Below are positions 7,104-16,743 of a stretch of 26,772 nucleotides of DNA, piece after piece. Each line of letters opens with the position of its first letter. Position 1 is the stretch's first letter. Source of the stretch: a virus (taxonomy: Duplodnaviria; Heunggongvirae; Uroviricota; Caudoviricetes); the IMG/VR virus record IMGVR_UViG_2778260994_000003, positions 1 to 26,772 of that record; one strand, written 5' to 3'. A model generated the notes under the pieces. That model was not told the origin of the DNA and did no database searches. It saw only the letters and a list, made by a program, of their open reading frames with translations. A program made the translations under genes and the position numbers.

Positions 7104-8150
7104 TTAACGATTATTTTTTATTTCAGTTACAGTCTGATTAAATCTCTCTTCTTCCAGTTCCACGCCAATTGCGCGACGTCCCAGTGAAAGTGCTGCTTTT
7201 ATTGTTGAGCCAGACCCCATAAAAAAATCAGCGACCAAATCACCGGGGCGACTGCTGGCAGTAATTATCTGACGCAACATATCTGCCGGTTTTTCACAGG
7301 GATGTTTGCCTGGATAATACTGCACAGGCTTGTGCGTCCAGACATCCGTATACGGAACAGCAGCTGATACGGAAAAATAACGCCGCAGGGATTTATACTC
7401 CTCCTGCAGGCTGGCATATTGCCGGTTCAGTTCACTGTATGTGCTGACCAGCTGGTGGTGCGGCTTTTCCAGCTCCCCGCGCTGATGTTTTTCTGCTGCA
7501 ACACGCGCGAACAGCGCCTGAAGTTTTTTGTAATCAGCCTCGTTCGGCAACTGCCACTGACTGGCACCAAACCAGTGTGACGCCATGTTTTTCTTTCCGG
7601 TGGCTTCCGCTATCTGTTTTGATGTTATCCCCAGAGATTCTCGCGCATCACGAAAGTAAGAAATCAGCGGGGCCATGACGCACTGTTTAAGCTCGCGCCC
7701 CTTTGCCGCATAGCCGTCATTTTTGGGCTGGTATGGCCCCTGATAATGTTCAGCAAACAGAATGCGCTCTGTTGCCGGGAAATACGCCCGCAGGCTTTCC
7801 TTGTTGCATCCGTTCCAGCGTCCGGACGGCTTCGCCCAGATAATGTGGTTCAGCACATTAAAGCGTTCACGCATCATGATTTCGATATCAGATGCCAGGC
7901 GATGCCCACAGAACAGGTAAAGGCTTCCGGCAGGTTTCAACACCCGCCAGAACTGGGCCAGACAGTGGTCCAGCCACTTAAGGTAATCTTCGTCCCCTTT
8001 CCACTGATTGTCCCAACCGTTGGGTTTCACCTTGAAGTAAGGCGGATCGGTAACAATCAGGTCAATGGAATCATCAGGCAGGGACTGAATAAAATGCAGG
8101 CAATCAGCGTTGATTAAATCAACACTGTTTATTTTTACAGTATTTTTCAT
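7104..8150 (-). CDS. DNA methyltransferase, beta-class N6-adenine/N4-cytosine type (orphan, phage late region)
   Basis: N-terminal DPPY motif (SIDLIVTDPPYF) and C-terminal SAM-binding motif (DFFMGSGST), the permuted order typical of beta-class amino-MTases. No cognate nuclease is adjacent. Confidence 0.85.
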   Translation of the reverse strand: MKNTVKINSVDLINADCLHFIQSLPDDSIDLIVTDPPYFKVKPNGWDNQWKGDEDYLKWLDHCLAQFWRVLKPAGSLYLFCGHRLASDIEIMMRERFNVLNHIIWAKPSGRWNGCNKESLRAYFPATERILFAEHYQGPYQPKNDGYAAKGRELKQCVMAPLISYFRDARESLGITSKQIAEATGKKNMASHWFGASQWQLPNEADYKKLQALFARVAAEKHQRGELEKPHHQLVSTYSELNRQYASLQEEYKSLRRYFSVSAAVPYTDVWTHKPVQYYPGKHPCEKPADMLRQIITASSRPGDLVADFFMGSGSTIKAALSLGRRAIGVELEEERFNQTVTEIKNNR

Positions 8151-8299
8151 GGATCAGTAAGCGTAACTCTGGTAGGCTCACTCTGCTTTTGCGCTAAAGC
8201 AGTGGGCCGTGGTTCGCTTGTGACCAGTAAGCATGAGCGAATGGCTGGCAGGTGCTACCAACACCCACCAGCCGCCCATTTTCACAAATTAAAAGCCCT

Positions 8300-12365: not shown

Positions 12366-12393
12366 GAAAAAACAAAACCCGCCGAAGCGGGTT
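12366..12393 (-). terminator. Intrinsic terminator (minus strand) downstream of hok
   Basis: AACCCGC-CGAA-GCGGGTT stem followed on the minus strand by TTTGTTTTTT. Confidence 0.7.
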
Positions 12394-12461
12394 AAGTGCG
12401 GGTGCGTTGAGAATGCCTGCCACATCAGAGGTGGCGAGGGATTTCTCCCTCGCCGGGTCTC

Positions 12462-12617
12462 TTACTCCTCAGGTTCGTAAGCTGTGAAGACAGCGACCTC
12501 CGTCTGGCCGGTTCGGATTCGTACCTCGCAGAGGTCTTTCCTCGTTACCAGTGCCGTCACTATGGCGGTTAAACAGATGACGATCAGGGCGATTAACATC
12601 GCCTTTTGCTGCTTCAT
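12462..12617 (-). CDS. hokD: Hok-family type I toxin (51 aa)
   Basis: Hand translation gives MKQQKAMLIALIVICLTAIVTALVTRKDLCEVRIRTGQTEVAVFTAYEPEE, essentially the HokD/RelF sequence as I remember it. GGAG upstream. A 19-codon upstream ORF (about 12614..12675) overlaps the hok ATG. Too short for the ORF track. Confidence 0.85.
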   Translation of the reverse strand: MKQQKAMLIALIVICLTAIVTALVTRKDLCEVRIRTGQTEVAVFTAYEPEE

Positions 12618-12828
12618 AGCCTGCTTCTCCTTGACCTTTCGGTCCGTAAGAGGCTAATCTCTATGTGTCGCATAGATATGGCCTCAGATTAATGTTAAGC
12701 GTCTTGCAGGACGCGTAATGTTAACTGGGGCTTTTCTCTATCTGCCTTTTGGTGTTCATGCCTGAGACAGATAGCCTCAAGCACCCGCAGCCATTCTACT
12801 TAACTCCCGTTACCTCGCCAATATAAAA

Positions 12829-12918
12829 TCAATCAGAAAGGCGATCCATAAGAACAACAGCAAGACAATAAATTGCCATTACAGCTGCAATAGCCAGCGC
12901 ACATTTGAGAACCAGCAC
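12829..12918 (-). CDS. Candidate 29-aa hydrophobic peptide gene
   Basis: GTG start with a perfect AGGAGG 5 nt upstream. Peptide MLVLKCALAIAAVMAIYCLAVVLMDRLSD (one TM helix). Not in the ORF track because of its length. Confidence 0.3.
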   Translation of the reverse strand: MLVLKCALAIAAVMAIYCLAVVLMDRLSD

Positions 12919-13148
12919 GACAACCTCCTGTATTGGACGTACACCAGTCCTGATAAATATGAGGCTGTCTCATCATTGATGAGATACAACTATTGGGTAT
13001 AGTTTCTGTGATTTTGTTCTGTAGAAATGGAACACAACAACCAGTCACCACCAGTACTTCTTTAAATACGCCAAGTCCGACGCAAGCTAACCTTCTAGTC
13101 CGCTTTGAGCGAAATGCGGACATGCGGGAGCATGGTTTATGTATGAAA

Positions 13149-13985
13149 CTAATGATGATAAATACCATCGTCTAAAGGGGGACCTTCAGCCGTAACCCCC
13201 GTGATACTACTTGGCGGTTCAAAGATGGCCCGACCAAATATTGCATCAAACTCTGCTTTTGTGACTGATAAGTATTGCAAGATGAGCTCTAGCAGCTCTC
13301 TGTACGTATCACAATGCCATTCAATGTGAGGACATATTCGGGAGAGAACTCTGTTCTTAAAATCATCCAGATTATTTGGGACTTCCAGCAAGTTACCAGT
13401 GTTTAATGCTTTCGACATAAACTTGTAATTGAGCATAGAGAGAACCACTACTGATACACCTTTCTCTTGCCTTAACTGATCGAACTTCTCTTGTGCTTGA
13501 AGGCTTAGCTTGGCGTATTCGCGATCTCGTTTAGAGTTGATTGGTTCGACGTACTGAAGCGGTTCGTCTGCAGCATCACCGATACGTGGACAAAAGTATC
13601 TATTCCACCAAGCCTCAAAATACCTTTTTTGGAACTCAAGGTATGTCATCCCAATAATATTGGTGTTTTGAGTGTACTGTTTAGCACCCTGCTGAAGCCC
13701 GTGCTTTGAAATAATAAATCCAATATTAGCCCCGGTTTCATGCATTACCGTGGTGAACGAATGGACCACCGTCTGTGGTATAGAACTACCCCAGTTTTTG
13801 CATTCCACAATGTATCTGATTTTGTCCACGCTCCTAACATCTGTAGCAAGAACATCCACATTCACCGAGCCACGCGGGGTTTCTAAATCGACCTCGACTT
13901 CTGCAAACAAGCCAACATTACGGAATATACGTTGGACCCCTGTCTGGAGGTCTTGCCAGTTTTCTGGTAGTGGGTCATCGATCAC
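13149..13985 (-). CDS. Mrr-like (PD-(D/E)xK restriction-endonuclease fold) N-terminal domain protein with unknown C-terminal domain
   Basis: VDVLATD...IRYIVECKNWGSS...GFIISKHG pattern (D...E-C-K) typical of Mrr/restriction-endonuclease catalytic cores. GTG start with AGGAAAAG upstream. GC content lower than the host-like genes. Confidence 0.55.
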   Translation of the reverse strand: MIDDPLPENWQDLQTGVQRIFRNVGLFAEVEVDLETPRGSVNVDVLATDVRSVDKIRYIVECKNWGSSIPQTVVHSFTTVMHETGANIGFIISKHGLQQGAKQYTQNTNIIGMTYLEFQKRYFEAWWNRYFCPRIGDAADEPLQYVEPINSKRDREYAKLSLQAQEKFDQLRQEKGVSVVVLSMLNYKFMSKALNTGNLLEVPNNLDDFKNRVLSRICPHIEWHCDTYRELLELILQYLSVTKAEFDAIFGRAIFEPPSSITGVTAEGPPLDDGIYHH

Positions 13986-14279
13986 TTCTGCTTTTCCTAT
14001 GCACTATCCGCATGCTTTTAAGACTACTTGAAGACACAAACGTCGTCATCCACTAAAAGGTTCAAATTTGAGATAAAAGTTCGTTTCTGGTACGAAGCGG
14101 ATCGTTTGAAGAACCGTGTGATCTGCTAAGAGCGAGGAGTGGACGTTCTCAAGGGATTGCTTACATCGAGGATGTATGAATCAACGGGGTGCAGGTCACA
14201 ATATATGCTATCACTTGGTTGTTGAAACGAATGCCAAAGCCTGTGACGAGCGAGGAGTAGACTTTGGCACAAAAAAAAT

Positions 14280-15233
14280 TTAAGTGTCCGATGACTTTGT
14301 TTCAGCCGCTTTATCCTCAACCAATACCCAATCTCCGGAGCTAACCTTTGTCATAAGACAAAATGGAAAGTTGTTAAAAAAATGTTCAATATCACTTGAG
14401 GGTATTTTCTCAATTTTATTTAAACAACCATCAGCTATTTGTAGGGAAATCATTTCTCTTGTAATTTTCATAAATTGATCAACATCAGATAACAACCATG
14501 TTTCATGATGAGCACCAAACAATTTGTGCGGTATATCATCAAGAATAAGATTGTCTAAATCATGTGATTTATCTTTGTTTAGCTCAAGAAGTACAAAATC
14601 AAAAAAATCAAAAAGATATGAATAGAGAAGATGAGTATAAAAGGTAAAATAGTAATCAGCAAAATTAATATTGTTATTGAATCTATTTGAATACATCATA
14701 TGAGGTTGAATCAGATCGTTTAGATCAGAGTCATATGCTTGGAAACAAATCTTTGTTTTAATATTATCATCGTTGACATAATAAGGATTTACTGTTATCC
14801 CTCCATGAACTATCTTATTTCTTATTTTATTAAAGTCCTTATACCATTTTAAATTCAAATCTGGAAATTCCTGTGCATATTGCTGGAAATGATTTTCAAG
14901 GTAATCATATTTGTTGCCATTTTTTTTAGTTGGAAAAATTAATTTATCAGCTATCTGATATGCAATATCCCATATCGTGCTGATTTTATAATAGCAATAC
15001 TCAATAGCACTAATGCTGACAATTGATGTTGCATCATGTTTTCTGATGAACTCAGCATCTTTTTGAATTTTATTAATGTAAGTAATCATATAAAACAGTT
15101 TCTTGAAATGAGTTTTTAAATTTTTTAAAAGAAACTGAAGTTTTATGTCTTCCAGTGTATCTTCTTCATACTTATTTAAGTACATAATAATTTTATAAAG
15201 TGGACTGCCAACTCTTTTTGCATGTACATCCAT
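14280..15233 (-). CDS. AT-rich hypothetical protein with a HEPN-like R-N-x3-H motif (Abi-like candidate)
   Basis: 317 aa at roughly 30% GC. Contains KIRNKIVHGG (R-x4-H with a polar residue after the Arg). GGAG RBS and its own TTGACT-17-TTAAAT promoter. Confidence 0.45.
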   Translation of the reverse strand: MDVHAKRVGSPLYKIIMYLNKYEEDTLEDIKLQFLLKNLKTHFKKLFYMITYINKIQKDAEFIRKHDATSIVSISAIEYCYYKISTIWDIAYQIADKLIFPTKKNGNKYDYLENHFQQYAQEFPDLNLKWYKDFNKIRNKIVHGGITVNPYYVNDDNIKTKICFQAYDSDLNDLIQPHMMYSNRFNNNINFADYYFTFYTHLLYSYLFDFFDFVLLELNKDKSHDLDNLILDDIPHKLFGAHHETWLLSDVDQFMKITREMISLQIADGCLNKIEKIPSSDIEHFFNNFPFCLMTKVSSGDWVLVEDKAAETKSSDT

Positions 15234-15273
15234 TATTTACTCCAATAAATCAATGCGAACATTTTAATTGAAA

Positions 15274-15302
15274 ATTTAATGCCAAAAACTTTAGTTAGTC
15301 AA
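15274..15302 (-). promoter_or_regulatory. Candidate sigma70 promoter for the HEPN-like gene
   Basis: On the minus strand: TTGACT (15297..15302), 17-nt spacer, TTAAAT (15274..15279), about 40 nt upstream of the ATG at 15233. Confidence 0.4.
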
Positions 15303-15402
15303 TAATTTATTCAAACGTCCGCTACTGGCACAAAGCAGACGCCCACTCTCACGCGAATGCTTTGCCCTTGACTTGCCAACAACCGTATCGCTTGCTCCGC
15401 AA

Positions 15403-16695
15403 CTATGGTTTTTTATTAGAATCTTCGCCACTAAATAAATTATAATAAATTGATTTTATTAGATATCTGTCAGAATCTATATGGTCAGCACGAGTAGCAT
15501 GCTCTAATGTTTCAAATGCTAGGGTTTGTGCGGCTTCAGCAAAAATTCCAGGCCAACCCTTACTCAGCATCGACAGTCCTTTAAGGACCCTTATCTGAAT
15601 TTCCCTCATACTGGCACCATCGCGCGCAACAGGTGAGAAAAAGTCTTCAAGTAGATCGTTATTCTGAAGTGGTGCAACATGTACAGAAGGATATTTCACT
15701 TCTATTTCATCAGATTTATTCTGCGCGTAAGCGGAAAGTATACGTACACCTCTGCCAATGACATCAATGGCGGTTCCAGGATCGTTCACTGCGGGGGAAA
15801 GGGCTCGGCAGGCTATTTCGGCCATGACGCTAAGACAAAATCGGGGGTCCTGAGCAAATGAACGTACATCCGAGACAATAATCGTCTCAAGTAAATCGGT
15901 GCTGATTGATGACTCCTGGCCCTGACTCAGGTACAAAACTGGCGTGGACGGATGTATGAAACTGCCCGGCTGCGCCACGAGGTATACATGACGGGGATCA
16001 TTGGTCAGCAGCTTGCTGAGTTTCACCATATCAACATATTCAACATAGCCAATCTTTTTCGGATAAACTGCAACCGTTCCTTTCGGCTGTTCATTGTTCT
16101 CAAGCCATGGATATCCGCCGAGACAGGGATTTCTTGCTCTCGCAATAAATGTTTCGATGGCCGCCTGTTCTACTTTTGCCGTTGTCTCACCAACCCTCCC
16201 CAGAGAGGTCAAATGCTGTATCCAGCGAAGCAATGTGATGAGGATTAAGGCAATGACAACCAGTGTTACAATGAATAAAATGACTCTCCCCCTTTCTCCA
16301 TAAGCTCCCATATTGAGGGCAATAATCCCTACCAGACTGAAGAGAAAAGAACCGATGAAGGTGGCCAGTACATTTTGTGTGGTGACGTCTTCAACAACTA
16401 AACGAGTAGCTCTGGGAGTCACATTAGTAGTGGCTGAACCGTAGGCTGTGACCATGATGCTCAGCGAAAATGTGGTCACTGCCAGCATACTCGATGCCAG
16501 TATGTTCAGAATGTTATCGACTGCTTCCGCACCAACCTTCACGGAAACCGACTCAGGTATCATTGATTTAAAAAGAATTGATAAAAGGGCCGTTATTATT
16601 GCGACAATTGCGAATAACGTTGCCCTGAACCATAGTTTTTTAAATGTCTGCTTCAGCATCCATTTCCAGCGTGAAATCATTCTGCATTCCCTCAT
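15403..16695 (-). CDS. Membrane protein, DUF2254-like (N-terminal TM helices plus soluble domain)
   Basis: 430-aa ORF with 4-5 hydrophobic helices in the first ~150 residues. Family name from memory. An alternative start at 16680 has a better RBS (GAGGGA). Confidence 0.55.
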   Translation of the reverse strand: MRECRMISRWKWMLKQTFKKLWFRATLFAIVAIITALLSILFKSMIPESVSVKVGAEAVDNILNILASSMLAVTTFSLSIMVTAYGSATTNVTPRATRLVVEDVTTQNVLATFIGSFLFSLVGIIALNMGAYGERGRVILFIVTLVVIALILITLLRWIQHLTSLGRVGETTAKVEQAAIETFIARARNPCLGGYPWLENNEQPKGTVAVYPKKIGYVEYVDMVKLSKLLTNDPRHVYLVAQPGSFIHPSTPVLYLSQGQESSISTDLLETIIVSDVRSFAQDPRFCLSVMAEIACRALSPAVNDPGTAIDVIGRGVRILSAYAQNKSDEIEVKYPSVHVAPLQNNDLLEDFFSPVARDGASMREIQIRVLKGLSMLSKGWPGIFAEAAQTLAFETLEHATRADHIDSDRYLIKSIYYNLFSGEDSNKKP

Positions 16696-16715
16696 ATTGC
16701 AGCCGGGATAAATAA

Positions 16716-16736
16716 ATGCCGCCTCTGTGGCGGCAT
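16716..16736 (-). terminator. Hairpin with T-rich tail 8 nt after the betT-like stop
   Basis: ATGCCGCC-TCTGT-GGCGGCAT perfect inverted repeat followed on the minus strand by TTATTTAT. Confidence 0.5.
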
Positions 16737-16743
16737 GTTGCTG

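Follow-up and report, generated by a model that had tools for sequence, protein, structure and literature searches.

A HEPN-type gene and an Mrr-type nuclease gene in prophage cargo: two autonomous modules and probable anti-phage effectors

What do two neighbouring minus-strand genes in the cargo region of a lambdoid prophage encode, and do they act together? The prophage is the IMG/VR virus record IMGVR_UViG_2778260994_000003 (Caudoviricetes), whose whole stretch of 26,772 nucleotides is called the window here, and the genes lie within positions 12,462 to 15,302. An earlier note, made from the sequence alone, read them as a small defence island beside a hok toxin gene, with one HEPN-motif gene and one Mrr-like nuclease gene that might be two independent abortive-infection effectors or a two-gene system. 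We find that they are two autonomous single-gene modules, and we think it probable, with real room for doubt, that both are anti-phage effectors expressed from the prophage as "moron" cargo, namely a HEPN ribonuclease and an Mrr-type deoxyribonuclease. The units in question, in window coordinates, are the following.

13097-15332: cargo cassette with both genes, 2236 bp, delimited by megablast junctions
14199-15332: module A, 29.5% GC, encodes gene A
14280-15233, minus strand: gene A, 317 amino acids (aa), ATG start, 28.6% GC
13097-14198: module B, 44.3% GC, encodes gene B
13149-13985, minus strand: gene B, 278 aa, GTG start, 44.1% GC

Both open reading frames (ORFs) lie where the earlier note had placed them, and both are real and conserved. 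Its description of them as two low-GC genes fits gene A and does not fit gene B, the window mean being 46.8%. As for their domains, the note was right on both, as set out below for each gene.

Gene A carries the peptide KIRNKIVHGG at residues 136-145, the single motif on which its HEPN call had originally rested. The motif, R138-N-K-I-V-H143, has the canonical R-N-x-x-x-H form, and R138 and H143 are invariant in 28 gene A homologues, within the consensus IRN(K/R)I(V/T)HGG. Only R138, H143, G145 and F164 remain unchanged in an alignment that takes in 26 remote relatives (13-32% identity). These remote relatives match HEPN_Cthe2314 (PF18730; five members, best E value 6.5e-6) as well as HEPN_Apea (PF18739; 0.002) and HEPN_RiboL-PSP (1.6e-4), and one of their clusters bears the NCBI name "Cthe_2314 family HEPN domain-containing protein". 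Because of the conservation of R138 and H143 and the Pfam matches of the remote relatives, the assignment of gene A as a HEPN protein is well supported at the sequence level, by motif and transitive homology more than by fold scores, and it now reaches beyond a single motif. The confident AlphaFold2 (AF2) model of the protein (predicted local distance difference test, pLDDT, 86.8) is organised as follows.

Residues ~30-218: helical bundle containing R138-x4-H143
Residues 147-191: beta insertion
Residues ~234-300: small C-terminal alpha/beta domain

In Foldseek searches with this model, the matches of top probability and greatest specificity were HEPN toxins and domains, but their scores were weak and generic helical bundles ranked alongside them; Foldseek gave no significant match in the PDB, and profile searches against PDB sequences returned nothing for the gene A or the gene B family. 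Gene A itself stays below all Pfam HEPN thresholds, its best match being HEPN_Apea at E 0.18 (12.6 bits, cut-off 24.4). One could then read the protein as a generic helical bundle in which R-x4-H is kept for a structural or ligand role, like the non-catalytic HEPN-like MtlR domains. Such a reading has to accommodate the fact that R138 and H143, with G145 and F164, are the sole invariant residues down to 13% identity, that three HEPN families are matched independently, and that the motif is in its canonical form; we hold it to be very improbable and retain the HEPN assignment.

The gene A family appears to be a distinct and very small HEPN branch. It amounts to 70 clusters (90% identity) among 5.8 billion proteins, and an exhaustive profile search found 53 representatives among 1.84 billion; no member occurred in the 50,697 phage genomes and 72,556 plasmids searched. 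HEPN_Apea is the sole recurrent Pfam match within the family (10 of 28 members, best E 0.004). Neither gene A nor gene B is matched in NCBIfam, and for gene A there is no significant match in PHROGs and no PADLOC 2.0 family at E <= 1. The Abi-like label once attached to the gene found no backing, with no Pfam Abi_2 match at E <= 1 and no PADLOC Abi match.

Gene B contains a Pfam Mrr_cat domain (PF04471) at residues 9-111, with 43.4 bits against a gathering score of 21 (E 4.3e-11), which bears out the D...E-C-K nuclease core first proposed from inspection. The catalytic stretches are VNVDVLAT, with D44, and IVECKNW, with E61-C62-K63, and all four residues are invariant in 30 gene B sequences; PF04471 was found in 120 of 120 homologues among the matches listed. 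The AF2 model (pLDDT 88.9) has a restriction-endonuclease-like alpha/beta fold, followed by one further domain.

Residues ~115-250: C-terminal domain of gene B, helical, conserved, unclassified

By its Mrr_cat match, the invariant D44/E61/K63 and the model, gene B is a solitary Mrr-type PD-(D/E)xK nuclease, for which the current database label is only "restriction endonuclease". The family comprises more than 360 clusters with a mean column identity of 75%, and members from Enterobacterales, Pseudomonas, Vibrio, Kangiella, Psychrobacter and Paraburkholderia are more than 60% identical; these values point to strong purifying selection across many genera. No member was present in the 50,697 sequenced phage genomes. 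PHROGs gave sub-threshold matches only (best E 8.7e-4, to a family of unknown function), and in PADLOC 2.0 the nuclease core has a weak match (3e-5) to the candidate PDC-S02. No methyltransferase gene was found around the cassette in the window or directly beside gene B in the P2-type, lambdoid, island and plasmid contexts examined; one island copy (L011, in the numbering of the fetched loci) has an HsdM-type methyltransferase ~4.6 kb away, which the other copies of that allele do not have.

Do the two genes form a pair? Their independence was examined by tblastn and hidden Markov model (HMM) searches over all fetched loci. Genes A and B occur together only in cassette copies at least 99.6% identical, with gene B at least 99% identical to the window copy. 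No gene B accompanies any of the seven diverged copies of gene A (46-69% identity; Comamonas, Vibrio, Lampropedia, Methylobacter, Pseudomonas, Aeromonas and one viral contig), and these loci have no neighbour family in common. Gene B homologues without gene A, on the other hand, were found in ~14 distinct contexts, including lambdoid prophages, genomic islands, a phage-plasmid and a Yersinia plasmid, and in 40 metagenome loci; they have different neighbours, among them a 258-aa unknown protein, SEC-C, DUF2971 and an HD-domain protein. Between the genes and around them, the cassette has these features.

15274-15302, minus strand: sigma-70-like promoter candidate for gene A (TTGACT-17-TTAAAT), inside the cassette, a consensus match only
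14920-14927, minus strand: A8 homopolymer in gene A, at about codon 103
14231-14270, minus strand: terminator-like hairpin directly 3' of the gene A stop, 12-bp stem, 16-nt loop
13986-14198, minus strand: gene B upstream region, which moves with gene B where gene A is absent

The genes are separated by 294 bp and the terminator-like hairpin (free energy, dG, -15.6 kcal/mol, z -4.1; 0 of 200 shuffles as stable), which was also scored as an inverted repeat, and the GC contents of the two modules are 15 points apart. The module junction lies at ~14198/14199, the match in locus L004 covering window positions 13098-14198 only. Another prophage, in E. coli strain 210205630, has gene B alone with 213 bp of upstream sequence (window 13098-14198). 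The last ~115 nt before the gene B GTG are nearly invariant across contexts; this and the lone copy in strain 210205630 therefore mark gene B as a module with its own control region. As to gene A, the promoter noted earlier is present as a string, reading 15302-15274, and it is not statistically distinctive in this AT-rich stretch, where 15 promoter-like sites were counted against 8.8 +/- 2.7 in shuffles.

The region ahead of gene B also holds a 25-codon upstream ORF (MTTFVSSSSLKSMRIVHRKSRSDR; 13976-14053, minus strand), whose TGA overlaps gene B codons 3-4 and in which four of six nucleotide changes between close relatives are synonymous. We rejected it as a general feature of the family, as it is absent, shortened or different in homologues below ~90% identity.

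A one-base deletion (A7 for A8) splits gene A in five of eight complete E. coli genomes and in two of three metagenome contigs, while gene B is intact in all seven of these copies. A sequencing error is unlikely because the allele was seen in independent assemblies and in metagenomes. The A7 allele could be the decay of a costly toxin or slipped-strand phase variation, and a phase-variable HEPN toxin controlled by the A8 tract is thus a secondary possibility. Since gene A is so often frameshifted and gene B so often alone, neither can be an obligatory antitoxin or partner of the other.

It could still be argued that the two form one cooperative system, with a sensor and an effector, two effectors under one trigger, or a toxin checked by its neighbour, in which HEPN and Mrr parts are interchangeable. 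All 14 known cassette copies have them next to each other on one strand, and other neighbouring pairs of a HEPN-type and an Mrr-type protein are met repeatedly. The Comamonas gene A homologue follows a different, 474-aa Mrr_cat protein; 90 bp downstream of gene B homologues of ~70% identity lies a 313-aa protein with a weak HEPN_RES_NTD1 match and the motif IIRNHLIHRGG, a 56%-identical copy of which is found 3.7 kb from the gene B homologue on a Yersinia plasmid; and a HEPN-annotated gene stands two genes from gene B in L004. HEPN domains are, however, common in defence islands, and an attC-like site separates the Comamonas Mrr_cat gene from the gene A homologue, which therefore makes it merely a neighbouring cassette. 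With no co-occurrence beyond one near-identical cassette (gene B at none of the seven diverged gene A loci, the check that the earlier note had proposed), half of the cassette copies frameshifted in gene A with gene B intact, gene B viable alone in many genomes, and a hairpin, 294 bp and a large GC difference between the genes, we judge a cooperative system quite unlikely. The recurring HEPN neighbours of gene B are outweighed by this evidence; of the two possibilities offered at the outset, the independent one is supported and the two-gene system is not. Genes A and B are not a co-evolved pair but two autonomous modules of different origin.

Several neighbours encountered in these searches deserve a record of their own. 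The HEPN-like family of 313-314 aa with a C-terminal IIRNHLIHRGG lies near gene B homologues of ~70% identity in E. coli and of 45% identity on a Yersinia ruckeri plasmid (L019 1002-1943, L020 1388-2329, L030 5925-6866, L059 5925-6866, L043 9460-10404). It was rejected as a relative of gene A, as the motif region alone aligns (probability 2%). In Enterobacteriaceae islands (L010-L017, 4984-5760), the 258-aa protein, without a Pfam match, is always found 240 bp upstream of a 94%-identical gene B on the same strand, and this pair recurs in at least three different flanking contexts. It is no relative of gene A either (hhalign probability 0.1%). The Comamonas 474-aa Mrr_cat protein, when compared, was rejected as a gene B homologue.

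Can gene A work alone? Its homologues are found as ~1 kb single-gene units bounded by attC-like inverted repeats, AGCTAAC...GTTAGCT, the criterion being R''-L''...L'-R' with the core GTTRRRY. Such sites flank both ends in Comamonas (L005, 7905-7973 and 8922-8988) and Aeromonas (L018, 5938-5980 and 6924-6980, with a further site at 8078-8195), and one end in Lampropedia, Methylobacter and a viral contig (L007 940-1006, L008 8930-9005, L041 1489-1555). By these sites the homologues are putative integron-type single-gene cassettes, and this is therefore independent evidence that gene A works alone. Streamlined single-gene defences are frequent among integron cassettes, and one of them, "Esos", is HEPN-like (bioRxiv 10.1101/2024.07.02.601686). 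Around the gene A homologues, Tandem Repeats Finder (TRF) detected no tandem repeats or RNA antitoxin of the type III toxin-antitoxin kind, and no non-coding DNA is conserved except ~25 nt in which the attC R' box and the ribosome-binding site are contained. Gene A of the window has at most degenerate attC remnants, such as GTTCGC ~30 nt before its ATG. A 25-nt motif (plus strand CTG..A.GAGCGAGGAGT.GAC.TT) was observed at 14123-14147 and 14241-14265, on either side of the module junction, and a weaker third copy of it at 13100-13124, in the downstream boundary hairpin. These copies may be remnants of cassette ends.

Where does the cassette reside? Among 5,426 complete E. coli genomes searched by megablast, eight carry it at 99.6-99.9% identity, and in all eight it is part of a P2-like prophage, with gene G (tail-fibre assembly) on one side and gene FI (sheath) on the other. 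The position is the same in two IMG/VR contigs and three metagenome contigs, which brings the other copies to 13. The occupant of the G-FI slot in reference P2 is fun(Z), which is non-essential, acts in lysogenic conversion and blocks T5. A 2026 survey counts both the Z/fun locus and a hotspot among the tail genes of P2 as P2 defence loci (PMC13586616), and the cassette is thus resident in a defence hotspot. The window, in turn, is a lambdoid prophage; 80% of its length aligns at 99.4% identity with prophages of enterotoxigenic E. coli (ETEC) strains. Its flanks match thousands of E. coli genomes independently of the cassette, and at this lambdoid position none of the 5,426 genomes has the cassette; between DUF2254 and hokD other strains have an S1 peptidase, insertion sequence (IS) elements or other genes. 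Because the near-identical cassette is found in the P2-like G-FI slot and in the lambdoid slot, the window records a transfer between two prophage families, from or to the P2-type Z/fun slot.

The S1-family peptidase that takes this slot in strain JNEC-KY178 has copies of at least 99.5% identity in 41 E. coli genomes. Some of them (L091 and L092; strains CP66-6_Sichuan and A32) lie in other islands beside degraded integrase, DUF4236, DUF2971 and BRO-N genes. This cargo was traced to other genomic islands and in no case to P2-like prophages; it is another example of cargo moving between elements.

How could a cassette pass between such unlike slots? Its two ends offer a clue, as both are hairpins with the same kind of stem (15341-15316 and 13121-13098).

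15316-15341, minus strand: upstream boundary hairpin, CGTCTGC-TTTGTGCCAGTA-GCGGACG, fold dG -14.6 kcal/mol, z -2.2, located by junction analysis
13098-13134, minus strand: gene B 3' element, two hairpins, the downstream cassette boundary
13121-13134, minus strand: first hairpin of the 3' element, CATGCTCCCGCATG
13098-13121, minus strand: second hairpin of the 3' element, GTCCGC-ATTTCGCTCAAA-GCGGAC

Identity between the window and the P2-type copies breaks in the loop of the upstream hairpin, at 15332/15333. This hairpin is probably the terminator of the DUF2254 gene, whose flank it forms in ~500 E. coli genomes, and its homologue in P2-like prophages and in reference P2 stands after gene G. 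The downstream hairpin is found 3' of every close gene B homologue, in differing contexts, and the downstream element also forms the end of the hokD flank in ~1,436 genomes of E. coli that have no gene B; an exact search for this hairpin in viral contigs returned only the two that carry the cassette. In reference P2 (AF063097), the edges of the fun(Z) slot are GTCCAC-TCTGTGCCAAAA-GCGGAC after G and TTCCGC-TTCTCGCTCAAA-GGAAAC before FI, at ~851-874 and ~2947-2970. The general forms, each of ~24 nt, are GTCYRC-(T)(Y)TGTGCCA...-GCGGAC for the upstream and (G/T)TCCGC-NTTCGCTCAAA-G(C/G)(G/A)(G/A)AC for the downstream hairpin.

The same two hairpins therefore frame fun(Z) in P2, the cassette in P2-like prophages, and the cassette or the S1 peptidase in lambdoid prophages. 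They are candidate crossover points because they frame variable cargo in two unrelated prophage families, and the crossover that moved the cassette most likely took place at these two short sequences bounding both slots. It is a bolder idea, and to us a distinctly improbable one, that the hairpins are recognised recombination sites of a portable slot, used by a phage recombinase on very short homology or in an attC-like, hairpin-directed exchange. If true, it would explain the shuttling of defence cargo between unrelated prophage families. How the swapping takes place is left open in the survey of P2/P4 defence loci, which makes no mention of hairpins or terminators (PMC13586616). A cassette more than 99.6% identical in P2-like and lambdoid prophages, bounded by the same hairpins, provides a testable handle on cargo swapping.

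What does the neighbouring toxin gene contribute? The earlier note placed hok directly downstream; it is in fact 531 bp away, outside the cassette, and belongs to a conserved prophage flank in which both parts of a Hok/Sok type I toxin-antitoxin locus are found, the Hok peptide and the sok/mok RNA region.

12462-12617, minus strand: hokD toxin gene (Pfam HOK_GEF, 1.1e-23)
12615-12786, minus strand: hok/sok (mok/sok) regulatory RNA region (Rfam RF01794, 106.7 bits, gathering score 59)

Rfam has no match inside the cassette. Just downstream of hokD, at 12372-12453 on the minus strand, there is a sub-threshold match to the Hfq-binding small RNA (sRNA) isrK (28.8 bits against a gathering score of 50, E 0.0014). 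A 111-aa Cys-rich ORF at 12833-13168, minus strand, runs across the gene B stop into the hok-proximal flank; related genomes do not annotate it, and it is probably spurious. On the upstream side, the cassette neighbours are a DUF2254 membrane protein and a BCCT-family (choline/betaine-type) transporter (15403-18747), further lambdoid prophage cargo placed between the replication region and the nin-type genes, in the same order in ETEC and other E. coli.

The proximity of hok/sok, a post-segregational killing locus, brings up the question whether genes A and B are selfish or addiction cargo, or functionless remnants, with gene B perhaps a mobile element's own nuclease. The frequent frameshifts in gene A would suit this explanation, as would the lack of a match of either protein to a validated defence system. 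In integrons, toxin-antitoxin cassettes are the commonest "defence" matches (bioRxiv 10.1101/2024.07.02.601686), and according to Rousset et al. some hotspot cargo is not defensive (PMC9122126). Neither gene, however, has a conserved antitoxin partner beside it or RNA-antitoxin-type repeats; gene B is strongly conserved and always located in accessory regions, never in a replication or packaging module; the absence of both genes from the 50,697 phage genomes indicates that they are not core phage functions; and hok is a conserved flank rather than part of the cassette. We regard this explanation as unlikely, and we prefer to see genes A and B as two single-gene anti-phage effectors.

That preference has to be set against several considerations besides the non-defensive hotspot cargo just mentioned. 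No phenotype is on record for the gene A or the gene B family, and neither is matched in NCBIfam or, apart from the weak PDC-S02 match of gene B, in PADLOC 2.0. Gene A itself scores below all Pfam HEPN thresholds, its frequent frameshifts could mean decay and not usefulness, and the HEPN-type proteins that recur near gene B relatives leave some room for a functional link. From the domains and from residence in the hotspot, we nevertheless infer ribonuclease (RNase) and deoxyribonuclease (DNase) activity, triggers and an anti-phage phenotype, along the following lines.

Gene A would be made constitutively as an inactive HEPN oligomer, in which the two R138-x4-H143 motifs of a dimer would build one composite active site. 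The beta insertion and the C-terminal domain may sense an infection cue and thereby render the site accessible, and the activated protein would cut tRNA or other RNA, leading to arrest of the infected cell. By analogy, gene A most likely acts like HepS of the Salmonella prophage Gifsy-1, a single-protein HEPN defence (PMC13043305), or like DARNA/PD-T7-3, which has an N-terminal HEPN and a C-terminal sensor domain (bioRxiv 10.64898/2026.02.22.705581). Gene B would be a Mg-dependent DNA endonuclease that acts via D44/E61/K63, its C-terminal helical domain serving oligomerisation and/or target recognition. Because no methyltransferase is present, it would be a modification-dependent (Type IV-like) restriction enzyme or an infection-triggered nuclease.

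Should these functions prove true, two candidate families would be added to the catalogue of prophage-borne immunity, gene A as a very rare HEPN branch and gene B as a widespread, highly conserved solitary nuclease without a PADLOC 2.0 model. Their small size allows each gene to be cloned together with its native promoter, which would make both easy to put through plaque assays.

How do the two genes compare with known systems? HepS, DARNA and ApeA resemble gene A in being single proteins carried as prophage or island cargo, with a HEPN R-x4-H motif and possible sensing parts, and DARNA shares with it the layout of an N-terminal HEPN and a C-terminal domain. They differ in that gene A has a beta insertion after the motif and another, small C-terminal domain, and in that no sequence relationship was found (no match in PADLOC 2.0, which we take to hold models of ApeA, PD-T7-3/DARNA, PD-T4-2 and the RloC/PrrC type). 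The superfamily members HEPN_Cthe2314 and HEPN_Apea, reportedly described by Anantharaman and colleagues in 2013, have the R-N-x3-H motif in common with gene A and are matched by its remote relatives, whereas gene A and its close family of ~70 clusters remain below the curated thresholds (best 0.004, Apea). Integron defence cassettes are similar to the gene A homologues, which are likewise small, single-gene, HEPN-like and attC-bounded; gene A of the window differs in its degenerate flanks and its own promoter-like site. Compared with fun(Z) and other P2 hotspot cargo, the cassette occupies the same G-FI slot in its 13 other copies, between the same two boundary hairpins. The fun(Z) protein is unrelated. 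Its gene runs against the direction of the tail genes, genes A and B run in that direction, and the window cassette lies in a lambdoid prophage.

For gene B, the relevant comparison is with Mrr and the Type IV enzymes and with the Mrr_cat effector domains of Lamassu, Avs, NLR-like systems, Cap4 and the integron cassette Epona. It shares with them the invariant D...E-x-K and, as a solitary gene, residence in defence hotspots, but it lacks any ATPase, SMC, SAVED or transmembrane partner or domain. E. coli Mrr has an N-terminal winged-helix DNA-binding domain (Mrr_N) and a C-terminal nuclease; in gene B the domain order is reversed and the C-terminal domain is helical and unclassified, so that the architecture of E. 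coli Mrr is not reproduced. PDC-S02 matches the nuclease core only, at another position of a longer profile. The known kinds to which the two genes belong are thus the single-protein HEPN effector and the solitary Mrr-type nuclease, and each gene is a further member of its kind.

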